From the NCBI GenBank assembly GCA_050012475.1, contig JBEKHC010000122.1, positions 1-12,878 on the forward strand: a DNA stretch of 12,878 nucleotides, written 5' to 3'. The notes under the pieces were generated by a model, which was given only the letters and a program-made list of their open reading frames with translations, was not told the origin of the DNA and did no database searches. Shown one piece after another: positions 1 through 12,010 of this stretch. Source of the stretch: Candidatus Velthaea sp. GTDB lineage: Bacteria; Vulcanimicrobiota; Vulcanimicrobiia; Vulcanimicrobiales; Vulcanimicrobiaceae. The translations under genes were made by a program, and so were the position numbers. Position 1 is the stretch's first letter. Each line of letters starts with the position of its first letter.

Positions 1-1
1 C

Positions 2-523
2 CCCGAAACGATCGTGGAACGCTGCGTCGATGCCGTCGCCGAGATCGTCGAGCGAACGGAGCAGCGGGCCGGCCTCCGACACGATTGCTTGGAGCAGCAC
101 CTCGCCCTCGCCGATCCGCGAGCGCAGCAGGCCAGGCACGATCGCCAGGGCGCGCGCGCTTGCCGCACAACCCCCTGCGCACAGCATTCGCGTCGCATCG
201 CTCGTCGCGGCTTTTTCGCCGAAGTTGCGGTAGATCGCTTGGCCGATCGCCTCGAGAAACAGTCCCTGTGCGATGAGCACGCGCGCTTCGCGGGCGCCCA
301 TTACGCTTGCCAGGACGGCCGCGATCGGTGCCTCGAGCGCGGTTCCGGTCAGATATTCGTCGGTCTGCACGCGCGTGCGCAGCAGGGCCATCGCGCGCTC
401 TTTCTCTGGCGTGAGCAGCGCGGGCGCCGACACGGCGTATTGTTTCACTGCCAAGGACTCGAAGCGGGCCAGGATCGTCCACAGCAGCGCTTCGCTGCGG
501 TCGATCTCCGTGCTGACGTTCAT
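2..523 (-). CDS. Partial (runs off left edge) helical protein; probable degenerate ferritin-like/ADO-like paralog lacking ExxH iron ligands
   Basis: Not in the ORF track; translated by hand. ATG at 523-521, 16 nt after the stop of 540..1280, open to the window edge (174 codons): MNVSTEIDRSEALLWTILARFESLAVKQYAVSAPALLTPEKERAMALLRTR...RVLIAQGLFLEAIGQAIYRNFGEK...LLRSLDDLGDGIDAAFHDRFG. FESLAVKQY and IAQGLFLEAIGQAIY mirror GEKVAAKIY and VVQGFIVESLAIATY of the upstream protein. Confidence 0.8.
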   Translation of the reverse strand, partial: MNVSTEIDRSEALLWTILARFESLAVKQYAVSAPALLTPEKERAMALLRTRVQTDEYLTGTALEAPIAAVLASVMGAREARVLIAQGLFLEAIGQAIYRNFGEKAATSDATRMLCAGGCAASARALAIVPGLLRSRIGEGEVLLQAIVSEAGPLLRSLDDLGDGIDAAFHDRFG

Positions 524-539
524 GCGTGTGCTCGACCTG

Positions 540-1280
540 CTACTTGGTTTTCTCGCCGCGGCGATACTTGCGAATGAGCGGCATGAACATCGCGACGACG
601 TGTTTGGTCGCGTCTTTCTGTTCGAACCCGACCGTCTCGAGCAGGCGGGTGTAGCCGTCCATCATAGCGCCCGCACAGTAGGCGCCGGACATGCCGATCT
701 TGTCGAGATACTCCGAAATGTTCATCATCGTGCCGCCGATGCAATCGATGCCCTGAACGTTGACGCGCTCGGCCAGCCCGCGGAACTCGTCGACCGCATC
801 GAAATAGCGCAGCCGCAAGTAGCGCACGACCCAGTCGACATGATAGTGTTCTTCTTCGAGCGCCTTGCGGAAGATGTCGTGGGTGCCCGGATACTTGTGC
901 GCGATCGGCAAAAACGATTCGTACGTCGCAATCGCCAGGCTTTCGACGATGAAGCCCTGCACGACGATGAGCGCGTCGAAGTCGCGTTTGGCGCCGTGCT
1001 CGTCGACTTGGCGAAGCAGATAGCTCAATTCGTTGTCGGCGAACGCGCGGTCGGGTTCGATTCCGTTGGCCCGGCTTACGTCGAGGAACCACGCGCCGTG
1101 GTTGGCCTCCATCTTGCCGAACTTGGTGAGCAGCGGCCCGTACTGCGGCTGCAGCTCGGCGCACAGCAGGTAAATTTTCGCCGCGACTTTCTCACCGAAG
1201 ATGGCAAGCGCCATCAGCTTTTCGATCGACTCCTGTTCCTCTCGCGGGCGCGGCGCAGTCAGGATCGTTACGTTGTCCAC
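540..1280 (-). CDS. Ferritin-like diiron protein, aldehyde-deformylating oxygenase (fatty aldehyde decarbonylase)-like, 246 aa
   Basis: GTG start preceded by a GAGGA RBS. Ligand set E30, E58xxH61, E113, E144xxH147 matches ADO spacing. ADO-type context motifs: GExxAxxxY, KMExxH, PDxxFA, QxxIxExxAIAxY..P.A, YxxxLExxGF. Confidence 0.85.
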   Translation of the reverse strand: MDNVTILTAPRPREEQESIEKLMALAIFGEKVAAKIYLLCAELQPQYGPLLTKFGKMEANHGAWFLDVSRANGIEPDRAFADNELSYLLRQVDEHGAKRDFDALIVVQGFIVESLAIATYESFLPIAHKYPGTHDIFRKALEEEHYHVDWVVRYLRLRYFDAVDEFRGLAERVNVQGIDCIGGTMMNISEYLDKIGMSGAYCAGAMMDGYTRLLETVGFEQKDATKHVVAMFMPLIRKYRRGEKTK

Positions 1281-1383
1281 TCGGGTTCCTCGTCAGGGCA
1301 AGCGATAAGCGGGCGGTCGATTCGGCGCGGGAGCGGTGCCGGGAGGGCCGTCGTGTTCGACCTGCCGGGATTGCAGCCGAATG

Positions 1384-1478: not shown

Positions 1479-2468
1479 TCAGTTGGTGCGCGCAAGCGCT
1501 TCCGACGGAATGATCGTCCGCTCGACCCGCTCGTTGCGGCGGAGCAAGCCGACCGTCGTGGGCGCGTCGACCCGGTCGTGCCCGGTCAGCACGCGGTGCA
1601 ATCCATCGACGCCTTCCACGGCCTGCGCTCCCAGCGCGATGACGATGTCGCCGGGTTCGATCCCCGCGCGCGAGGCCGGACTCGACGGCTCGACGCTCTG
1701 GACGAGAATCCCGCGCTGCTGCGCGAGCCCGTGCAGACGTTGAAGAAAACGCGGGATATCGACGTCACTCCCCGCGATCCCGACATAGCCGCGATGGATC
1801 TTGCCGTCGCGGATGAGCAAGCTGGCGATATGCTTGGCGGTATTGGCCGCGATGGCAAAACAGATACCTTGGCCGGCGGCCACGATCGCGGTGTTGACGC
1901 CGATGACCTGGCCGCGGGCATCGACCAGCGGGCCGCCGCTGTTGCCCGGATTGAGCGCGGCGTCGGTCTGGATGATGTTGTCCATCAGGCGGCCGGATTG
2001 CGAGCGCAGCGTTCGTCCCAGCGCCGAAACGATGCCCGCCGTCACGGTCGTTTGCAGGCCGAAGGGATTGCCCAGCGCGATGGCCAGCTGGCCGGGCCGG
2101 ATCGCGGCCGAATCGCCGAAGGCGATCGGGGTGAGATCGTTGGCGCTGATGCGAATCACCGCTAAGTCGCTGTCCGGGTCGTCGCCGACGAGCAAAGCGC
2201 GGTAGCGCCGGCCGTCGAGCAGCGCGGCCTCGATCTCGCGCGCACCGTGGACGACGTGGCTGTTGGTGAAGATAAAGCCGTCGGGCGTTGCGATCAACCC
2301 GGATCCGCTGCCCGCCTGGCGGCCGCCGGCGCGGACCTCGATCCCGACAACCGACGGCGAAGCGCGGTCGACGGCGGCAGTGACGACGCTCGAGTACGAA
2401 TCTGCGCCGGCCGCGTCGTCGGCGACGAACCGGGCAAGGGAGGAGAGACTGGACATGGTGCAGATCAT
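1479..2468 (-). CDS. HtrA/DegP-like S1C serine protease with one C-terminal PDZ domain, no signal peptide (~329 aa)
   Basis: Catalytic triad motifs TNSHVV, DSDLAV and GNSGGPL, plus GSGSG and IQTDAALN; PDZ motif SPASRAGIEPGDIVIAL. Start placed at ATG 2468, which overlaps the upstream stop (ATGA); ATG 2456 is an alternative. The ORF-track extension to 2705 lies inside the upstream gene. Confidence 0.92.
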   Translation of the reverse strand: MICTMSSLSSLARFVADDAAGADSYSSVVTAAVDRASPSVVGIEVRAGGRQAGSGSGLIATPDGFIFTNSHVVHGAREIEAALLDGRRYRALLVGDDPDSDLAVIRISANDLTPIAFGDSAAIRPGQLAIALGNPFGLQTTVTAGIVSALGRTLRSQSGRLMDNIIQTDAALNPGNSGGPLVDARGQVIGVNTAIVAAGQGICFAIAANTAKHIASLLIRDGKIHRGYVGIAGSDVDIPRFLQRLHGLAQQRGILVQSVEPSSPASRAGIEPGDIVIALGAQAVEGVDGLHRVLTGHDRVDAPTTVGLLRRNERVERTIIPSEALARTN

Positions 2469-4078
2469 TGACCCGCCGGCCGGTCTGCCGGTTGCGTCGC
2501 CGCCGGTGCGCCCCCGGGTTTGGGGAAACAGCCGTCGGCGGCCGAGATCGGCGGGGTCGCCGCCAACGGGGCGGTCGTGGTCACCCCGATTTCGAGCGGA
2601 TAGTTCGATCCGCCGTCGGTCATCGTGAGCACGTCGAGCGTCCCGCTGGCATGGGGTGCCAGCTCGAAAGGCGCGATCAGGTAGCGTTGGGGAACGCGCA
2701 CGCACCCGAGGTCGACCGGCGTGCCGTTGACGACGAAGCTGCTGCGGACCACCCCGCCCAACGGTTTCTCGTACAAGTACACCGTCGTCGATCGGTCGCC
2801 CGGATTGTCGAGATCGAATGCGATCTGCTGGAGCACGCCGTAGTCGCCGTAGTCATGGCCGGGGTCGACCGGGTCCAGGTTGCGCGGCGTTTGCTGCCGG
2901 CTGCCGTAGACGTAGCCAGCATCCGGGCCGCCGGCCGAATACGCGATGATCCGCTGAGCAAAATCGCCGACTGCGAAGCTGCCGTGGCGGGTGTGGCCGT
3001 CGGCTGGCAGCTTGGATGCGTACAGATAGGCAGCGGGGTCGGCGTCGAGCGGGATCGCCATGACCGTCGCCGTGACCGGGCCGCCGTCGAGCACGCGGAG
3101 ATCGAGCGCCCCGACGATCCCGTCGCCGGGCCCCGCAATGACGTCGCGTTCGAGACTTGGTTTCCCGCCCACGATCGTCGCCACGACGCCTTCGCCGTGC
3201 GGTTCGACGGCTAGAAACGATTTCGACACCGCGTGGCCGACGCTCATCACGTCGATGTTCGGCCCGGCTGCCGCGCCGACGAGCTGCACGCGGGTGCGCA
3301 CGCTGTCGTTCGCGCTCAGCACGACGCAGAAGCGCCGCCGTACACCCACGTTCTGATGATAATAGTACAGGCGCGTCGGTTGTCCGGCGCTCACGGTCGT
3401 GCGGGAAAGGACGCCGTCGGCGATGATGCGTTCGGGATCGTCGGCGAACGCGAGCAGCGCCGGAGCGCCGTCCGGAACGGCGGCGTTGACGACGTCGACG
3501 GTGGTCGAACCGCTGACGGGGGCCGTTCCGGGACCGGGTTCGATGGCGACCGCGACGCTGAAGCTGGTCAGAAAGCCGCGCTCGAGCTGTTGCGGCTGCG
3601 GCACGATCGCGCCAGGGTGCACCGAACTGCCCGGTGCGAGCGTGGGTGCGACGGCGGCGGTGACGGCGGCTTCCAGGCGCGAGGCCAGAAAGCCAGCCGC
3701 CGCGGGATCGCCCGAGATGGTGAGTCCGAGGCGGGCGGGCACGCTACCCGCCGGCGGCCGGACGTCGACCGGGATGTCGAGCGTCGTACCCGCCGCGTCG
3801 CTGACGTGCAGAACGAACTCGCCCAGGCGCGTTCCGGCCGCGACGGTCAGCGTGTGCGTTTGCGGGTCCACCGTGACGGCGATCTGCGGGTCCGATGCGC
3901 TCGCCGCGATCGCGCCTGACGTTCCGTCCAGCACGATTGCCGCGCGCCCCTCGGGCGGAAGCGTGATCGCGGCCGGCACGGCGCCGATCGCGTTTTGGGC
4001 GCCCACCGGGCCGCCGCTGGCGCCGTAAACGGCGCCGAGCAGGGCGAACCCGAGGATCGCGCGGCGTTCAGGCCGCGT
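2465..4078 (-). CDS. Secreted hypothetical protein with N-terminal beta-rich region and DUF3370-like C-terminal region; start uncertain (first canonical start GTG 4006)
   Basis: 513-aa ORF from GTG 4006. The frame stays open upstream to TGA 4096-4094 and encodes a signal-peptide-like RPERRAILGFALLGAVYGA after ACG 4078. Motifs FADDPE..DGVL, LYYYHQN and GDYGVLQQIAFDLDNP recall the SNSPE..GIL / GNYGVxY..NP pattern of DUF3370-type proteins (from memory). Confidence 0.7.
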   Translation of the reverse strand, partial: TRPERRAILGFALLGAVYGASGGPVGAQNAIGAVPAAITLPPEGRAAIVLDGTSGAIAASASDPQIAVTVDPQTHTLTVAAGTRLGEFVLHVSDAAGTTLDIPVDVRPPAGSVPARLGLTISGDPAAAGFLASRLEAAVTAAVAPTLAPGSSVHPGAIVPQPQQLERGFLTSFSVAVAIEPGPGTAPVSGSTTVDVVNAAVPDGAPALLAFADDPERIIADGVLSRTTVSAGQPTRLYYYHQNVGVRRRFCVVLSANDSVRTRVQLVGAAAGPNIDVMSVGHAVSKSFLAVEPHGEGVVATIVGGKPSLERDVIAGPGDGIVGALDLRVLDGGPVTATVMAIPLDADPAAYLYASKLPADGHTRHGSFAVGDFAQRIIAYSAGGPDAGYVYGSRQQTPRNLDPVDPGHDYGDYGVLQQIAFDLDNPGDRSTTVYLYEKPLGGVVRSSFVVNGTPVDLGCVRVPQRYLIAPFELAPHASGTLDVLTMTDGGSNYPLEIGVTTTAPLAATPPISAADGCFPKPGGAPAATQPADRPAGQ

Positions 4079-4093: not shown

Positions 4094-5290
4094 TCAATCC
4101 CGTTTGCGCGGAACGAGTCCGTTCTTGACCACGATCGCGGCCCCGTCGCTCGACCGCGCGTAACTCAGCAGACCCGAGGTCGCGGCGTTGTCGTGCGTTG
4201 AAGCGGCCCGCACCGCGATCGACAGCGTGTAGGGATAGCGCCCCGACGCGATCGAGAGCACGTTGGGCACCGGCAAATAGGTGAGCGGGACGACTTTGGC
4301 CGCGGCGGCTTGACTGAAGGCCACCAGGCCAATGGCGTTGCGGCTGTCGGAGTCGCCCGACGTCACCTCCCGGGCAACTGCGGCGCTCGAACGGCTGCGC
4401 CGCACCGCGCGATCGATCGTCACACCGAAGAACAGCGATGACTCGAGCGCCTTGGCTTCGTCGGTGCCGGCTGCGGGAAGCATCGCGACGATCGGACCCG
4501 GCGGCAGACCCAGCTCCGACCAATCGTGAATCGAACCGCTGAAGATCAGCCGCAGCTCGGTTTCGCTGATGCGCGCAATGGGATTCTGGGGGTTGACCAC
4601 GGCCACGATCGCGTCGTGGGCGATCACGTCGTCGGGAGTTTCCGGCGTCATCGAAAAACGGACGTCGCACGTTTTCGCGGTGGTGAAGCTGAAGCGGTTG
4701 GCGCGGGTCGCGCTCTTGGCGGCGTAGCCGCGCACGAGATCGGCGGCCAGCTGCGGTGCGCTCGAAATCGTGCAAACCGTGATGCTGTCGGCCTGCGCGC
4801 GCTGCATCCCAACGTCGGGACGCGCCGCGTACACGATCGCGGCGCTCGCACCCAGGGCGGCCGCGACGATCCAAAACCAGCGCAAGGGAATGATAAACTT
4901 CGCGCGCGCCGCGCTCGCGGCCAACCTGCTCGCCGTCTGTCGCGGGGCGGGTGCGGGTATCGGAGCAGACGCCGGCACCGGAGCGGATGCCGCCGGCCCC
5001 GGCGCCGGCGCGGACTTCATTGCCGCGCGCTCCGCGGCGGGCGCGGGTGCCGAGACGGCGGCCGCCGGTGCGGCGACGGCCGCTCCGTTGCCGTTCGAGG
5101 ACGATGGCGCAGCCGCGGGATCACCCGGGACGAGCGCTTCGCCGCATTCCGGGCAGTATTCGCCGGCGCCGAGATACCACTCGACAGCTTTGCCGGTCTC
5201 GCCCGTCGTGCAATTTGCCCGATTGACGCAGTGCGCCGTGCGGCCGACGCTGTCACGCTTCAGGCGGGTCGCGCCCTCAGTGGATAACAT
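4094..5290 (-). CDS. Membrane-anchored protein: N-terminal Cys4 zinc-ribbon-like domain, Pro/Ala linker, TM helix, PstS-like (PBP_like_2) substrate-binding domain (~398 aa)
   Basis: CVNRANC...CPECG; AP-rich linker; TM WFWIVAAALGASAAIVYAA; PstS-family motifs IAHDAIVAVVNPQNPI..ISETELRLIFSGSIHDWSELG, NAIGLV and IASGRYPY. ATG 5290 overlaps the end of the upstream gene. Confidence 0.8.
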   Translation of the reverse strand: MLSTEGATRLKRDSVGRTAHCVNRANCTTGETGKAVEWYLGAGEYCPECGEALVPGDPAAAPSSSNGNGAAVAAPAAAVSAPAPAAERAAMKSAPAPGPAASAPVPASAPIPAPAPRQTASRLAASAARAKFIIPLRWFWIVAAALGASAAIVYAARPDVGMQRAQADSITVCTISSAPQLAADLVRGYAAKSATRANRFSFTTAKTCDVRFSMTPETPDDVIAHDAIVAVVNPQNPIARISETELRLIFSGSIHDWSELGLPPGPIVAMLPAAGTDEAKALESSLFFGVTIDRAVRRSRSSAAVAREVTSGDSDSRNAIGLVAFSQAAAAKVVPLTYLPVPNVLSIASGRYPYTLSIAVRAASTHDNAATSGLLSYARSSDGAAIVVKNGLVPRKRD

Positions 5291-6020
5291 GGTTGCGCGC
5301 CAGGTCGGACGCTCGGCGCTCCGCTGCGCGTTTCGCCGCCTCGGCACGAAGCGCGACGCGCGTTTCGAACAGACGCAGTTCTTCCACGCCTTCGAGGGAA
5401 GGGCTGTTCACGAGATCGTCGCCGGCGCCCAGCGCGCGGGCACGTTCCTCCGCTTCGGCCGAGGCGCTTTCTGCCCGTTGGCGGGTCGCGCGGTATTCGG
5501 CCAAGTCGGCTGCTGCGGCTGCGGCTTCGGTGTCGGCGGCCGCGCGGGCGGCGCCGATTTCCGCATGGTGTGCGTCCGTTTCACCGGCTGCGCGGGAGGC
5601 TTGGGCGAGTTCCGCGCGCGCTGCCTCGAGCCGCCGCTCGCACTCCGCCACCGCCGCCGCCGCATTGTCGCGGGCTGTTCGGGCGGCGGCCGAGGAGTTG
5701 TCGAGCGCCATCTGCCGGTCGGTCAGCTCGGCGATTCGGCTCGCGCACGCCTCGACGCGGAGGATCGCCTCGTGCTCGAACTGGGCCGCGGTGACCGCGG
5801 TTGCCGCATGCTCGCGCGCCGTAGCGCGCTCCACGGCGATGCGCGCCGCGAGCGTTTCGCCGGCGAGCCGTTCTTCGAGCGAGCGCGCCTCAGCGAGCAA
5901 TTCCTCGACGGCACGTCGCTGTTCGACGGCACGCGCTTGGGCCGCCGCCAAGATCGCAGCGAGCTCCGCCGGGGGGACGGATTCGGCGGACGCGGAGCTA
6001 GGGTCGACGAACTGGTCCAT
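5277..6020 (-). CDS. Ala/Glu/Arg-rich coiled-coil hypothetical protein (247 aa)
   Basis: ATG at 6020 with AGAAGG upstream; long stretch of helix-favouring A/E/R residues with no Pro in the core; no signal peptide or TM segment. Confidence 0.75.
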   Translation of the reverse strand: MDQFVDPSSASAESVPPAELAAILAAAQARAVEQRRAVEELLAEARSLEERLAGETLAARIAVERATAREHAATAVTAAQFEHEAILRVEACASRIAELTDRQMALDNSSAAARTARDNAAAAVAECERRLEAARAELAQASRAAGETDAHHAEIGAARAAADTEAAAAAADLAEYRATRQRAESASAEAEERARALGAGDDLVNSPSLEGVEELRLFETRVALRAEAAKRAAERRASDLARNHVIH

Positions 6021-6024
6021 TCTC

Positions 6025-6070
6025 GAACCGCCTTCTGGGCAGACGAACACCGGCTATTCGAAAGCGGTTC
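6025..6070 (-). promoter_or_regulatory. Leader hairpin (11-bp stem, one G-U pair) overlapping the putative RBS of the coiled-coil gene
   Basis: In mRNA sense GAACCGCUUUC (6070-6060) pairs with GAAGGCGGUUC (6035-6025), ending 4 nt before ATG 6020. Confidence 0.4.
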
Positions 6071-6232: not shown

Positions 6233-8962
6233 TTACATGGTGATCCGACGGCGCCGGTACCAGTCGGCCTGTTTTCGCGCCCGCGCGTCCGGCGCTCGGT
6301 AGATCGCTTGAATCGTCGGATAGCTCGGGTCGGTCGTCAAGCCGTACATATTGCCGCTGTTGTCGAGCACGAAGACCCAGTTGCCGTCGATCGTCGCGGG
6401 CATCCGCAGGTTGGCGCTGGTCGGCAAAAGCGGATTGCCGCCATTGAGGACGGCTCCCGTCGACGCGTCGATCGCCCACAGATCGCCGCCCGTGCCGTTC
6501 ACGGTTCCGGCGAAGACGACTCCGCCCGCGCTCACCGCCGGGACGCTGCGCGGCGTGCCGATGCTGCTCGAGTCCGAACCGAACGCGGCGTGCCAGGTCA
6601 CCGACGGCGTGCCGCAGCCCGGGTTGATCGCGACGAGCCCGGCAGGAATGAGGGTCGGGCTCGCGCTCGTTGCGACCGGCGCGTAGATCAGCCCGGTAAT
6701 GGGCGAAAATGCCGGATCGCCCAGGTAGGAGTCATCGAAGCCCGGCGGCGACATTTGATATTGAACGACCGGTCCATTGCCGATCGTGGCTTCGTTGTAG
6801 AGGCTGAGGTCGCCGGATTTTCCTTGAATTGCGACCATCGGGGCGCAGCCCGTTCCGTTCGGCTGAAAAACCAGCGGCGTGCCTTGCAGGTCGAGGTCAC
6901 TGACGGTTTGGCTGTAGGTGCCCGTCGGGATCGGATGATTGGCGGCAACGACGCTTCCCAGGCTCGAGGACAGCTCCAAGAGTGTCTCGGCGTAGCCGCT
7001 GTACTCGGTGGGAGCCGCCGCGAACGGCGCAACGATCGCTCCGTAGGGCGTGGTGCCGTTGTCGGCGTTCCCAACGCCGGTCAGGACGTTTCCGGAGAAG
7101 TCGACCGAGACGCCGCCCCAGCCCCAGACGCCGGCACCGCTCCAGGGCTGCATTCCCGCGCCGCGCGTATTCTGCGGATCCCACACGGTGAAGAAGCGAT
7201 TGGCGACCGTCATCCCCGGCACGCTGACGGCGACCACGCTGCCGCGCCAGGGTGAGATGTCGCACGACGAACTCGTGCCGACGTAAGCGATGCCGTTGTT
7301 CAAGGCAACGGCGGTGTGGGAGAAATTGAGCTCGCTCGCAGCCGCCGCCGCGGGCGCGAAGTTCACGCGGCCGAGGATCGAGCCCGTCGTTCCGTCGAGG
7401 CGATAGAGGGTGTTCGCCGCGTACGTATCGGCCGCCGGATTGGAATTGCCGATGACGTACAGCGATTTCGTCGCCGCGTCATACGCGACCGTGCCGCCGA
7501 CGCCGAAGTACGACGTTCCGCCGCAGGCCGTGTAAAGTTCCTGGCCCAGCGACGTTTTCCAGAGCAGCGTTCCCTTCAAAGCATCGTAGCCGTAGACGTT
7601 GCCCGTGCCGCCGCCGACGAACACGACGCCGGCGTGGCCGGATATCTCCGTAGCGAGAACCGGCTGCGTTTGGGTGTTGTAATCGCCCAGCGACGCCTGC
7701 CAAGCCAGGTGGAGCTTCGGTATGCCCGCCGGCGCGAGCGCCGTCGAGTTCGGATTGAAAACGTCGTGCTGAACGTCGTAGCCGAAGCTCGGGTAGTCGT
7801 TGAAGGCGGCCGTCGTCGGCGTGGGCGTGGGCGTCGCCGAGCCGCCGCCGCTGATCTCGATCCCGTTGATGGCGGCGTTGTCGGTTACCGAAGTCAACGC
7901 GATGGTGATGGTGCCGCTTGCGTTCGCGGTGGCGCTGAACGTTTGGGCGACCGCCTTGAAACGTGCGCCGGCCGTGGCGTAAACATCGAAGTTGCTCAGC
8001 ACTTTGGTCGCGTTGATGCTGACGTTGAAGACCCGCTGGCCGGCCGCCGTCCACCACAGTTCGGCGAAATCCAGGCGCACGGTATACGGCGCGCCGGCAG
8101 TGAGTCCAGGAATCGAATACGAGATGGTCTTGCCTTCCCGTTCGGATTGATATACGGCCTGCGGCGCCGGATTCGCTACGCCGCTAGTGTCGATCGGATT
8201 GGCAACGACGTAGGTCCAGGTTCCCGCGGCGACGACGTCTTCGTCGGCGGCGAAATTCCCGGCAGCGGCTCCGCCGGCGTCGATCGCAAGCGTCGTTCCC
8301 GGTCCTGCGGTCCCGGTGGCGGTCGGGGCCGGCGTCGGTGTCGGCGTGCTGCCGCCCGACACGATTTCGATTGCGTTGATCGCTGCGTTGTCGGTGACGG
8401 CGTTGAACGTAATGAGGATGACGCCGGCGGAGTTCGCGCTGGCCGTGAACGATTCGCTGACGGCTTTGTTGCGCGCGCCGGCGGCGGCGAAAACATCGAA
8501 ATTGCTCAGCGCGTTGCTGCCGTTGATGGCGATGTTGAAAACGCGCTGGCCCGCTGCACTCCACCACAGTTCGGCGAAGCTCAGGCGCACCGTATAGGCT
8601 GCGCCCGCCGTCAGCCCCGGGATCGAATACGAGATCGCTTTTCCTTCGCGTTCGGTTTGATAGACCGCTTGCGGCGCGGGATTCGCAACGCTGCTGGTAT
8701 CGATCGTGCTGGTGCTCTTATACGTCCAGGTGCCCGAGGCGCCGTAATCTGTGTCGGCGCTGAAGGTTCCCGCCGCACTTCCGCCGGCGTCGAGTGCAAC
8801 GACATCCGTGCCCGCAGCGGCAGCCGCGGCATGCGCTTTTGCAACCGGAACGGGCGGCAGGCTCGATTGTCCGCCGCTATGCGATCCGCTGCACGCGCTC
8901 ACGAGGGCAGCGGCAACAAGCACTGCCCAAAAACGGCGCAGTGTGTGACCATGATCGAACAC
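6233..8962 (-). CDS. Lipoprotein A: 2x malectin (CBM57-like) domains + PQQ-like beta-propeller (909 aa)
   Basis: GTG start with a GGAGG RBS; lipobox LVSA-C24. Two malectin repeats (~8806-8360 and ~8293-7850) with YQ(T/S)ER, YTVRL(S/D)FAE, GQRVF, NFDV..AG and DNA.INxIEI; Pro-Thr linkers. Propeller motifs GNVYGYDALKGTLLWK, LWAIDASTG, GVWGWGG and DLDLQGTP. Confidence 0.88.
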   Translation of the reverse strand: MFDHGHTLRRFWAVLVAAALVSACSGSHSGGQSSLPPVPVAKAHAAAAAAGTDVVALDAGGSAAGTFSADTDYGASGTWTYKSTSTIDTSSVANPAPQAVYQTEREGKAISYSIPGLTAGAAYTVRLSFAELWWSAAGQRVFNIAINGSNALSNFDVFAAAGARNKAVSESFTASANSAGVILITFNAVTDNAAINAIEIVSGGSTPTPTPAPTATGTAGPGTTLAIDAGGAAAGNFAADEDVVAAGTWTYVVANPIDTSGVANPAPQAVYQSEREGKTISYSIPGLTAGAPYTVRLDFAELWWTAAGQRVFNVSINATKVLSNFDVYATAGARFKAVAQTFSATANASGTITIALTSVTDNAAINGIEISGGGSATPTPTPTTAAFNDYPSFGYDVQHDVFNPNSTALAPAGIPKLHLAWQASLGDYNTQTQPVLATEISGHAGVVFVGGGTGNVYGYDALKGTLLWKTSLGQELYTACGGTSYFGVGGTVAYDAATKSLYVIGNSNPAADTYAANTLYRLDGTTGSILGRVNFAPAAAAASELNFSHTAVALNNGIAYVGTSSSCDISPWRGSVVAVSVPGMTVANRFFTVWDPQNTRGAGMQPWSGAGVWGWGGVSVDFSGNVLTGVGNADNGTTPYGAIVAPFAAAPTEYSGYAETLLELSSSLGSVVAANHPIPTGTYSQTVSDLDLQGTPLVFQPNGTGCAPMVAIQGKSGDLSLYNEATIGNGPVVQYQMSPPGFDDSYLGDPAFSPITGLIYAPVATSASPTLIPAGLVAINPGCGTPSVTWHAAFGSDSSSIGTPRSVPAVSAGGVVFAGTVNGTGGDLWAIDASTGAVLNGGNPLLPTSANLRMPATIDGNWVFVLDNSGNMYGLTTDPSYPTIQAIYRAPDARARKQADWYRRRRITM

Positions 8963-9162: not shown

Positions 9163-11856
9163 CTAAGGGCGCATCAAACGGCTCAGCGGTTTGCTCGAAC
9201 GCGGATCCGGTGCGTGATACGCCGGTGTGATGGTCGGATAGCTCTGATCGGTCGTGAGACCGTACAAGTTGCCGCTGTTGTCGATTACGAACACCCAATC
9301 GCCGTCGATGGTCACGGGCATGCGGATGTTGGCGCTGGTCGACAAAATCGGCTTGCCGGACACGGCGCCGGTCGAAGCGTCGATCGCCCATACGTCGCCG
9401 CCCGTGCCGTTCACGGTTCCGGCAAAGACCACGCCCCCCGCGCTCACCGCGGGAACGCTGCGCGGCAGCCCGCTGCCGCTCGAATCGGCACCGAATGCGG
9501 CGTGCCAGGCGACGGACGGCGTGCCGCAGCCCGGATTGATCGCGACCAGACCGGCGGGGAAGAGCGTGGGGCTCGCGCTCGCCGCAACGGGCGCATACAT
9601 CAGCCCGGTGGCCGGCGAGTAGGCCGGATCGCCCAAGTACGCGTCATCCGAACCGGGTGCGGACATTTGGTATTGCGCGACCGGGCCGGCGCCGATGCTG
9701 GTTTCGTTATAGAGGTTGAGTTCGCCGGACTTTCCTTGGAGTGCGACCATCGTGCTGCAGCCGGCGCCATTGGGATGAAAGATCAGCGGTGTGCCTTGCA
9801 CGTCGAGGTCGTCGACGGTTGCGCTGTAGACGCTGGGCGGTATGGGATGATTGTCGGCGACGACGCTTGCCAGACTCGGTGAGAGCGACAGCAGCGTTTC
9901 GGCGTAACCGCTGTACTCGGTGGGCGACGCCGCGAACGGCGCAACGAGTTTGCCGTTCGAGGTGCCGTCGTCGGCGTTCCCCACGCCGGTAAGCACGTTC
10001 CCCGAAGCGTCGAGCGAAACGCCGCCCCAGCCCCAGACGCCGGCGCCGCTCCAAGGCTGCGCTCCCGCGCCGCGCGTGTTCTGCGGATCCCAGACGGTGA
10101 AGAAGCGATTGGCGACCGTCATCGCCGGCACGGTGATGGCAACGATGCTGCCGCGCCAGGGCGAGATGTCGCAGGTCGATCCGGTCCCGACGTAGGCGGT
10201 GCCGTTATTCAAGCTGACAGCGGTGTGGGAGAAGTCGAGTTCGCTTGCAGCGGCAGCCGCGGGCGCGAAGTTTACTTTCCCGAGCACCGTTCCCGTCGCG
10301 CCGTCGAGCCGATAAAGCGTGTTGGCGGCGTACGCGTTGCTCGCCGCGTTCGCGTTGCCGACGACGTACAGCGCTTTTGTCGCGGGGTCGTACGCCGCCG
10401 AGCCGCCGATGCCGAAATACGATGTCGTGCCGCAGCCGGTGTAGGTGAGCTGACCGGTCGATGTTTTCCAGAGCTGCGTTCCTTTGAGCGCATCGTAGGC
10501 GTAGACGCTGCCCGAACCGCCGCCGACGAACAGCACGCCGGCATGACCGCTGATTTCCGTTGCGAGAATCGGCTGCGTTTGCGTGTTGTAGTCGCCCACC
10601 GTCGCCTGCCAGGCGAGATGCAGTTGCGTTAGGTTCGCCGCTGCGATCGCCGTCGAGTTCGGGTTGAACACGTCGCGGGCGTTGTCGTAGCCGTAGGTCG
10701 GATAATCGTTGAAGGTCGGCGCCGGCGTCGGTGAAGCGCCGGCGGGAGCGATCTCGATGCCGTTGACCGCGGCGTTGTCGGTCACCGCCGTCAGCGTGAT
10801 CGCGATCGTTCCGCTCGTGCTCGCGGTCGCGCTGAACGATTCGGCGACGGCCTTGAAGCGCGCGCCGGCCGTAGCGAAGACATCGAAGTTGCTCAGCACT
10901 TTGGTCGCGTTGATGCTGACGTTGAAGACCCGACGGCCGGCTGCCGTCCAATAGAGCTCGGCGAAATCCAAGCGTACGGTGTATATAGCGCCGGCCTTCA
11001 GCCCGGGAATCGTATACGCGATCGTCGGGCCTTCGCGTTCGTCTTGATAGACGGCTTCCGGAGCGGGATCCGACACCCCGCTCGTAACGATCGTGTTGGC
11101 AACTTTGTACGTCCAGGTCCCGGCGGTCACCAGATCTTCGTCGGCGGTGAAACCGCCGGTTGCCGTGCCGCCGCTATTGATCGCGATGCTGTTCGCGGGA
11201 GTCGGGGTCGCGGTGGGAGTGGGCAGCGGTGTAGGCGTGGCGCTGCCGCCCGACACGATCTCGATCGCGTTGATCGCGGCGTTATCGGTTACGGCCGCGA
11301 ACGCGATCGTGATCGTGCCGGCGGAACTTGCGGTAGCGGTGAAGCTTTCGATAACGGCTTTATTGGCTGCGCCGGCGGCGGCAAAGACGTCGAAATTGGC
11401 GAGCACGTTGCTGCCGTTGATGCTGACGTTGAACACGCGCTGACCGGCTGCCGTCCACCACAACTCGGCGAAACTCAAGCGCACGGTATATGGCGTGCCT
11501 GCCGTCAGACCCGGGATCGAATACGAGATGGTTTTGCCTTCGCGTTCCGTTTGATAGACGGCTTGCGGTGCGGGATTCGTCACGCCGCTGGTCGCGATCG
11601 TGGCCGTGCTCTTGTAGGTCCACGTGCCGGACGCGACATAGTCCGCATCGGCAGCGAAACTGCCGGCGGCTGCGCCCCCGGAGTCGAGGGCCACGACGTC
11701 GGTAGCGGCTGCGATCGCAGCGGCCGCGTGCAGCTTCGCGGCGGGAAGCGGCGGCAGCGCCGATTGCCCCGTCGGGTGCGACGCGCCGCAGGCGCTCAAC
11801 AGGGCTGCGACAATGGCCGCGATCGCGATTCGGAATAATCGCTGACGATGGAGCAC
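9163..11856 (-). CDS. Lipoprotein B: 2x malectin domains + PQQ-like beta-propeller (897 aa), paralog of 6233..8962
   Basis: Start reassigned to GTG 11856 (GGGAGG 5 nt upstream), giving MLHRQRLFRIAIAAIVAALLSA-C23 lipobox. Same domain order and colinear high similarity to lipoprotein A. Confidence 0.88.
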   Translation of the reverse strand: MLHRQRLFRIAIAAIVAALLSACGASHPTGQSALPPLPAAKLHAAAAIAAATDVVALDSGGAAAGSFAADADYVASGTWTYKSTATIATSGVTNPAPQAVYQTEREGKTISYSIPGLTAGTPYTVRLSFAELWWTAAGQRVFNVSINGSNVLANFDVFAAAGAANKAVIESFTATASSAGTITIAFAAVTDNAAINAIEIVSGGSATPTPLPTPTATPTPANSIAINSGGTATGGFTADEDLVTAGTWTYKVANTIVTSGVSDPAPEAVYQDEREGPTIAYTIPGLKAGAIYTVRLDFAELYWTAAGRRVFNVSINATKVLSNFDVFATAGARFKAVAESFSATASTSGTIAITLTAVTDNAAVNGIEIAPAGASPTPAPTFNDYPTYGYDNARDVFNPNSTAIAAANLTQLHLAWQATVGDYNTQTQPILATEISGHAGVLFVGGGSGSVYAYDALKGTQLWKTSTGQLTYTGCGTTSYFGIGGSAAYDPATKALYVVGNANAASNAYAANTLYRLDGATGTVLGKVNFAPAAAAASELDFSHTAVSLNNGTAYVGTGSTCDISPWRGSIVAITVPAMTVANRFFTVWDPQNTRGAGAQPWSGAGVWGWGGVSLDASGNVLTGVGNADDGTSNGKLVAPFAASPTEYSGYAETLLSLSPSLASVVADNHPIPPSVYSATVDDLDVQGTPLIFHPNGAGCSTMVALQGKSGELNLYNETSIGAGPVAQYQMSAPGSDDAYLGDPAYSPATGLMYAPVAASASPTLFPAGLVAINPGCGTPSVAWHAAFGADSSGSGLPRSVPAVSAGGVVFAGTVNGTGGDVWAIDASTGAVSGKPILSTSANIRMPVTIDGDWVFVIDNSGNLYGLTTDQSYPTITPAYHAPDPRSSKPLSRLMRP

Positions 11857-12010
11857 GCCGACCTCCCGTCCGCACCAACGCCCGGCGCGCGTCGATCGTC
11901 GCGGCGCGACGTCAAACCGCCGCGGCCGATGCACGCTTTGCGCTGACCGGACGGCGAGTTGCGTCGCGTTGAGCAATTCGTCCTACGCGGAACGTCTAAA
12001 GGCGGGGTTC

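Follow-up and report, generated by a model that had tools for sequence, protein, structure and literature searches.

A divergent aldehyde decarbonylase-like diiron protein encoded with a ligand-poor twin and a predicted thioester reductase in Candidatus Velthaea and other bacteria

The locus

The window, meaning the whole 12,878-nucleotide stretch of DNA analyzed here, is contig C122 of a 5.36-Mb genome (93.8% complete) of the genus Candidatus Velthaea (Vulcanimicrobiota). The first-pass annotation of this DNA described a gene, here called A, that resembles the alkane-forming aldehyde decarbonylase (ADO) of cyanobacteria (cADO), and it overlooked both gene B, which lies in the window directly behind A, and gene C (Table 1). 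B starts 16 nt after A and runs to the contig end, and C follows B with a 4-nt overlap. A metagenome contig that is approximately 99.5% identical, L028, bridges C122 to contig C145 over a 41-nt gap, and A, B, and C are contiguous on it. Neither a sigma-70 promoter nor a significant terminator was found in L028. RNA libraries gave near-identical contigs, in which A is covered in all four runs, the A-B boundary in one, and a portion of C in two or more; these libraries come from one study of low depth in which DNA carry-over is possible, and their coverage is no evidence of cotranscription.

On either side of the cassette, degP precedes A and PaoABC-like molybdoenzyme genes follow C; both were rejected as further cassette members, being neighbors in Velthaea only. 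The rest of the window contains an unannotated 513-amino-acid open reading frame (ORF) at 2465-4006(-), which several Velthaea loci retain on the upstream side of A, a gene for a PstS-like protein at 4094-5347(-), an Ala-rich coiled-coil ORF at 5277-6050(-), and tandem paralogous genes for secreted proteins or lipoproteins at 6233-8962(-) and 9163-11976(-), which are 75% identical and have malectin domains and a PQQ-like beta-propeller.

Table 1. Features of the A-B-C locus
Feature	Location	Strand	Details
Gene A, ADO-fold diiron enzyme	window 540..1280	-	246 aa, GTG start
GAGGA, ribosome-binding-site-like	window 1287..1291	-	6 nt upstream of the GTG start codon; from sequence
Gene A, diiron ligands			E30, E58, H61, E113, E144, H147
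Gene A, second-sphere residues			Y37, Q108, Y120
Gene A, family-specific residues			E84, W150, C180
Gene A, positions without AAR-docking acids			A200, G204, A205 instead
Gene B, ADO-fold paralog	window 1..523	-	5' 174 of 214 codons, cut by contig end
Gene B, remainder	G000:C145:1-81		last 26 codons and stop
Gene B, whole gene	L028:2210-2854		
Gene C, predicted thioester-reductase SDR	G000:C145:78-1220		380 aa; outside window, on next contig

Gene A and the cyanobacterial ADOs

A was compared with an alignment of 90 homologs (the A family) and with a reference set of 35 cADOs; Synechococcus elongatus ADO numbering was read by hand from the alignment and then checked column by column. All of the diiron ligands that had been claimed for A (Table 1) and the five ADO-type motifs that had been quoted are present in its translation. 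The six ligands are invariant in the A family (90/90) and share alignment columns with the six ligands of the cADOs (35/35). Their spacing is indeed 28, 55, and 31 residues, versus 28, 55, and 29 in ADO, with the difference caused by a two-residue insertion before helix 5. Two substitutions that had been placed by eye also hold in the alignment: Val68 lies at ADO Cys70, where the family has Ala in 59 and Val in 25 of 90 members, and Trp64 lies at ADO Gly66, where 75 of 90 members have Trp. The richness in Met and Cys that had been ascribed to the C-terminal helices is real, with a family mean of 7.7 such residues in the C-terminal region versus 4.3 in cADO, but its extent is modest, at 9 of the 61 residues in positions 175 to 235.

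Among Pfam families, the best match to A was PF11266 (Ald_deCOase; E = 1.6e-18, 67.8 bits, cutoff of 28), while the rubrerythrin family PF02915 barely exceeded its cutoff (23.2 versus 22.8 bits) and COQ7 (15.6) fell below its own. The sole NCBIfam match was TIGR04059, whose 65.6 bits lie below the equivalog cutoff of 222.65, and the first 20 of 34 matches in a sequence search of the PDB were cADOs. A model of A, predicted with AlphaFold2 from the 90-sequence alignment (pLDDT of 90.5), has eight helices and aligned to ADO 5UX2 over 218 residues with a Z score of 31.9 and an rmsd of 1.6 A, compared to a Z score of 19.5 for the best non-ADO structure. R2lox (19.1), PaaA/C (15.9), the soluble diiron monooxygenases (14.7 to 17.8), and AurF (11.7) scored lower, and MiaE was not among the fold matches listed for the model. 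Foldseek gave ADO an E value of 1e-10 and the family ranked next one of 3e-3, the ESM Atlas also supported an ADO fold, and TM scores to ADO were 0.8 to 0.9 across the fold comparisons. Automatic annotation has named some of the homologs listed "fatty aldehyde decarbonylase" and many of them "rubrerythrin." By sequence and modeled fold, A is a member of the ADO structural family, as the first-pass annotation had proposed, and no other family matches it better, yet it is not a cADO equivalog: it falls short of the TIGR04059 score, lies outside cyanobacterial hosts and the normal cADO clade, has no nearby aar, and lacks the acidic docking residues of helix 7. Its identity to the 35 cADOs is 19 to 23%.

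The A equivalents of ADO Y39, Q110, Y122, G31, F67, and A118 are invariant (90/90), and several channel positions differ conservatively from ADO (I24L, I27L, V28A, C70V/A, F87L, F117L/M, Y125F, and V184I). Seventeen channel residues are listed in PMC5007808, and at 15 of these 17 positions A has a nonpolar or aromatic residue, with E84 and T119 as the exceptions. Throughout the family (90/90), the channel residue ADO F86 is replaced by E84, ADO F150 by Trp, and ADO L176 by C180; ADO L198 is replaced by C202 in 84 of 90. The position of ADO R62 has Gln in 51 of 90 members and Arg in only 10; in cADO, loss of this residue (R62A) lowers kcat by 91%, according to PMC5356278. Gao et al. (PMC7089970) describe the ADO variants E196A, E200A, and E200A/D201A as abolishing detectable binding of the acyl-ACP reductase AAR. 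At these three positions, all 90 A proteins have A or S, G or A, and (mostly) small residues, respectively, which fits a loss of AAR.

Genes B and C and their linkage to A

A pairwise BLASTP comparison of A and B found no similarity (E = 66), a Pfam search of B returned no convincing family, and the kinship of the two proteins is visible only by profile and fold comparison. The B profile matched that of A over 160 columns (probability of 89, E = 2e-6), whereas its match to the cADO profile was weak (probability of 2, E = 0.02), so B is probably the product of a gene duplication within the A lineage; against the PDB, the B profile reached an E value of 0.057. The closest structure to the predicted model of B (pLDDT of 94.1) was ADO 5UX2 (Z score of 18.9, rmsd of 3.4, 200 residues aligned), with the next non-ADO structure at 14.5, and Foldseek also ranked ADO first. 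E22, Y29, Q86, E91, and Y98 are invariant in B proteins (30/30) and are read as the equivalents of ADO E32, Y39, Q110, E115, and Y122. B has neither ExxH motif and of the ligands keeps only E22 and E91. The only column of B with His in at least 10 of 30 rows lies just before a QG motif and is no ligand site. Position 41 is always basic (Lys in 28 and Arg in 2 of 30), and this residue might fill the metal site. B is under purifying selection, with dN/dS values of 0.10 to 0.27 in five of six pairs and the sixth pair saturated. Its helix matching ADO helix 7 carries D179 in 30/30 proteins and acidic residues at 183 (D/E) and 187 (E/D), likewise in 30/30, and because of these invariant acids B may dock C. 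By its residues and modeled fold, B is likely a noncatalytic partner of A.

For C, the best Pfam match was PF07993 and the best family overall was TIGR01746, at 63.9 bits against a cutoff of 213.35. All 18 C proteins matched both TIGR01746 and PRK07201, in every case below the cutoffs, and weaker matches to epimerase models were seen in some (GalE in 8 and HpnA in 9 of 18). When the C profile was searched against the PDB, all five matches at E values of 1e-6 or lower were terminal reductase domains of NRPS/PKS enzymes, with MxaA first (2e-15); a single-sequence search returned UDP-glucose epimerases at 3e-4. The GxxGxxG motif (G7/G10/G13) and residues S131, T132, Y158, and K162 are invariant (18/18). 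These best matches suggest that C is a stand-alone MxaA-type thioester reductase, and it is predicted to reduce acyl groups. Thioester reductases of this type can go on to alcohols. The first-pass annotation had suggested that A may draw on another aldehyde source, for which a candidate can now be named in the coinherited C.

In all 16 carrier genomes, which belong to Vulcanimicrobiota, Vampirovibrionia, Myxococcota, and Stellaceae, B follows A and C is in the cluster, after B in 14 and upstream in 2. Nine metagenome loci, some of them redundant, had B in eight and C in seven, with the misses at contig ends. Neither B nor C was found at any of the 35 cADO loci (flanks of approximately 1.5 kb). 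Conversely, 29 of the 35 cyanobacterial loci have aar close to ADO, compared to 0 of 23 loci with the cassette. The reported absence of an adjacent aar holds for the window, and a search of the 93.8% complete genome for aar gave a best score of 80.6 bits against the TIGR04058 cutoff of 449.7. Pairwise identities of A, B, and C correlate across 19 loci (Spearman coefficients of 0.86 to 0.89 from pairs that are not independent), and dN/dS in five of six pairs, the sixth being saturated, was 0.04 to 0.11 for A and 0.09 to 0.17 for C. No gene fusion was found in a weak search among proteins of 476 to 2,000 amino acids, which are longer than an A-B fusion is expected to be (432 to 475), and a plasmid search gave no match.

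In three loci (L020, L035, and L036), genes for a fatty acyl-AMP ligase-ACP (FAAL-ACP) and a desaturase flank A-B, and in L020 and L035 the FAAL-ACP lies between C and A. A desaturase is found at the cassette in L021 and L016, FabH- and FabD-like genes in L019, and an MMPL transporter in L018. No lipid genes were found beside the cassette at most carrier loci (Velthaea, five of six Vampirovibrionia, and Stellaceae), and a FAAL like that of L035 was found neither in the host genome (best match of 26%) nor in any of the five other carriers tested. Two irregularities were seen at these loci. The copy of A at L021:9971-10702 is broken by one in-frame TAG, with B and C intact, and is a pseudogene or an assembly error, which shows that A can decay or be misassembled. 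Between B and C, L018:7990-8200 holds a short tandem repeat of approximately five copies of a 33-nt unit.

Hosts and phylogeny

The noncyanobacterial setting that had been ascribed to A is borne out. All three same-genus relatives of the host carry A at 83 to 84% identity, and some of them share the neighbors degP (upstream) and cheC/cheY/motAB (downstream), so the contig is no stray fragment of cyanobacterial DNA. Among 680 candidates, 311 proteins were homologs of A at E values of 0.001 or lower, with identities of 60 to 100% among the 120 matches listed. The distribution is patchy: within the host phylum, 5 of the 301 genomes are carriers, as are 6 of 301 (a count that includes a record labeled Chloroflexota) in the class of Obscuribacterales L015, which we take to be Vampirovibrionia, and 2 of the 182 from the class to which L020 belongs; full-strength matches were seen in 2 of 401 genomes in the phylum of Myxococcales L019, and A also occurs in one Stellaceae genome.

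In a tree of 62 rows, a branch with 100/100 support and a stem of approximately 4 changes per column separates the A proteins, along with three degenerate relatives, from 20 cADOs, which places A on a branch of its own in the phylogeny that the first-pass annotation had called for. The tree is unrooted, its long branches meet, and the support for cADO monophyly is 73/29; a sister group and a long-branch offshoot of the cADOs both fit. Together with the identity of 19 to 23% and the score of 65.6 of 222.65 bits, the long stem suggests that the function of A may have shifted. Degenerate proteins of the A lineage, P0170, P0178, and P0185, are on long branches. Because several ligands have been lost in P0178 and P0185, A may have given rise to other dead copies in events separate from the origin of B. 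The host genome has a second PF11266 match on contig C8 (E = 2e-4), which is below the cutoff and has no NCBIfam match. It also has a locus (G000:C15:45288-47330 and 53679-55787) in which an AAR-like protein, the best TIGR04058 match of the genome and closest to the PigE N-terminal region, is encoded near a START/cyclase gene and a class III aminotransferase gene, and which may make fatty amines.

The A clade is not alone in carrying ADO-like genes outside cyanobacteria. A second such clade includes P0210, P0217, P0220, and P0225 as well as L101:1132-2049(-) and L062:6813-7613(-), with TIGR04059 scores of 54 to 72 bits, and several of its members carry a C-terminal CxxCxxxC motif. The ADO-like gene of L062 lies directly before an AAR-like gene, L062:5722-7125(-) (TIGR04058, 148 bits), and the two are possibly a noncyanobacterial ado-aar pair. 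Within cyanobacteria, a divergent second ADO at L094:3397-4176 is found amid a rubrerythrin-domain gene, presumably acsF, a heme oxygenase gene, and a radical-SAM (HemN-like) gene, neighbors that suggest a low-oxygen operon.

Velthaea is described as a putative phototroph in PMC9758169. Type II reaction-center genes were found in 26 of 301 genomes of the host phylum, including all five carriers of A (G000:C88:4690-6351 in the host and also G001 to G003 and G199). Phototrophy as a requirement for the cassette was ruled out, since reaction centers were found in 0 of 10 carriers tested outside the host phylum. Any link between phototrophy and the cassette within the host phylum is weak, as it involves two genera and nonphototrophic carriers occur in other phyla.

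Proposed pathway, alternatives, and known systems

We lean slightly toward a pathway in which C makes a fatty aldehyde, A deformylates it to an alka(e)ne and formate, and B serves as a structural or docking subunit. This pathway builds on the predicted-model folds, the residues, the gene linkage, the purifying selection, and the absence of aar at the loci, and from these we infer catalysis and binding. C would reduce acyl-ACP or acyl-CoA with NAD(P)H to the fatty aldehyde; in L020, L035, and L036 the FAAL-ACP would load a free fatty acid and the desaturase would add a double bond, and in carriers without FAAL-ACP the acyl group would come from host fatty acid synthesis. A, with two irons, O2, and electrons from a host ferredoxin, would then convert the aldehyde to the Cn-1 alka(e)ne and formate as cADO does. 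The host genome has 14 Fer2 matches, none of them assigned. B would be noncatalytic; it may pack on the small-residue helix 7 of A, use its own acidic helix 7 to dock C, or do both. Several observations count against this pathway: the invariant Glu84 at the position of channel Phe86, the invariant Cys180 and near-invariant Cys202, the mostly lost R62, the scores of C below every family cutoff and its epimerase matches, the lack of a lipid gene beside the cassette in most carriers and of an L035-like FAAL in the genomes searched for it, and the interrupted copy of A in L021. In addition, as cADO functions without a second subunit, simple analogy does not account for B. A more specific and tentative possibility is that an ADO, its dead twin, and a thioester reductase form a channeling complex, which would be a second natural ADO pathway. 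In this AAR-independent hydrocarbon synthase, the pseudoenzyme would have taken over the docking surface from the enzyme; on the same tentative reading, this system would be shared by anoxygenic phototrophic Vulcanimicrobiota, nonphotosynthetic Cyanobacteriota (Vampirovibrionia), Myxococcota, and Alphaproteobacteria.

The main alternative is different oxygenase chemistry on a lipid. In PaaA/PaaC and the soluble monooxygenases, which are alpha/beta-type diiron oxygenases, the metal-free paralog has a role. A and B could likewise be an oxygenase of this type, acting on an acyl chain by hydroxylation, desaturation, or shortening, either ahead of its release by C as an aldehyde or alcohol or afterward. 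The product would then be a modified lipid or signal instead of a plain alkane, and the obligate, ligand-less nature of B would suit it, as would the invariant E84, W150, and C180 of A, the loss of R62, the long stem, and a FAAL-ACP/desaturase context like that of small lipid natural-product clusters. According to PMC5356278, cADO itself yields n-1 aldehydes and alcohols as side products. We nonetheless regard this as rather unlikely, because the fold of A is far nearer to ADO than to PaaA/C or the monooxygenases, the aldehyde-end residues G31, A118, Q110, and Y122 are invariant in its family, and the second ADO-like clade also adjoins an aldehyde-generating gene of AAR-like type, which suggests that aldehydes are the substrate of the family.

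The remaining alternatives concern the partners and the identity of A. The GalE and HpnA matches and the UDP-glucose epimerases returned from the PDB would be expected if C were a sugar-nucleotide or hopanoid-type extended SDR and the cassette acted on a non-acyl substrate, but thioester reductase models score best for C in Pfam, NCBIfam, and the PDB, and in two loci, L020 and L035, the FAAL-ACP gene separates C from A, making such a role quite improbable. Still less credible is an arrangement in trans, in which the AAR-like protein G000:C15:46221-47330 supplies A as an ordinary ADO and B and C are passengers: G000 to G003 do have an AAR-like gene (80 to 95 bits, TIGR04058), but its product scores higher against the N-terminal region of PigE (182 bits) and is encoded near the aminotransferase III and START-like genes, the gene was not found at E values of 0.001 or lower in six of seven other carriers tested, A lacks the docking acids, and B and C travel with A over several phyla. 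Equally hard to credit, and largely refuted, is the idea that A is some other ferritin-like protein (rubrerythrin, Coq7, MiaE, AurF, or R2lox) for iron or peroxide handling. The automatic "rubrerythrin" names and the marginal PF02915 score point that way, but the eight-helix ADO architecture with its TM scores, the Z scores below 20 for all others, and the fixed linkage of A to a reductase argue against it.

Mak et al. in 2020 reportedly described ferritin-like proteins with ADO activity. The PDB titles of 5UXG, 6D9F, and 8FHC name ADO activity in noncyanobacterial ferritin-like proteins, which are distant from A (Z scores of 12.8 to 19.5). ADO is called exclusive to cyanobacteria in PMC5699528 and PMC3903477, and a lake study reports an ADO-like ("fatty aldehyde decarbonylase") gene in Flavobacteriaceae (PMC10176705). 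No account of the A-B-C cassette was found in the open-access literature searched, and the three genes likely make up a pathway, not described so far, that leads from fatty acids to hydrocarbons. It may be an unrecognized bacterial source of hydrocarbons, missed by surveys that count ADO as cyanobacterial. When microbes are engineered to make alkanes, ADO is the slow step (PMC5356278), and a conserved, distant ADO clade with its own reductase would offer new enzymes and a ready three-gene test for bio-alkane production. B would be a case of a pseudoenzyme subunit arising by duplication inside the ADO family, the A clade could serve as an outgroup for the origin of cADO, and with the phototrophic carriers of the host phylum, the reason for alkane production by phototrophs could be tested in organisms other than cyanobacteria, though that link is weak.

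Compared to the cyanobacterial AAR/ADO system (PF11266, TIGR04059; 4RC5, 5UX2, 5UWZ, and 6JZU), the cassette shares the eight-helix ferritin-like fold, the six ligands, Y39/Q110/Y122, a mostly hydrophobic channel, and a gene placed beside an acyl-thioester reductase gene, which in the cassette is predicted. It differs in its noncyanobacterial hosts, the low identity of A, an extended-SDR reductase in place of AAR, the absence of the AAR-docking acids, an extra ligand-less paralog, and E84, W64, W150, C180, and C202 in A. With the NRPS/PKS terminal reductase domains (MxaA R 4U7W and AusA R; TIGR01746 and PF07993) and the PRK07201 acyl-CoA reductases, C has in common the GxxGxxG motif and the S/T-Y-K triad, but it is stand-alone, scores below all cutoffs, and is largely unmatched in its C-terminal half. 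PaaA/PaaC and the soluble diiron monooxygenase pairs likewise place a catalytic diiron gene beside a same-fold paralog without full ligands, whereas A and B are both closest to ADO and the cassette lacks the reductase and regulatory subunits of those systems. An engineered alkane route combines a carboxylic acid reductase with ADO. The FAAL-ACP, reductase, and ADO of L020, L035, and L036 would follow the same adenylation-carrier-reductase-deformylase logic, but in a natural cassette made of separate genes with B and a desaturase in addition.
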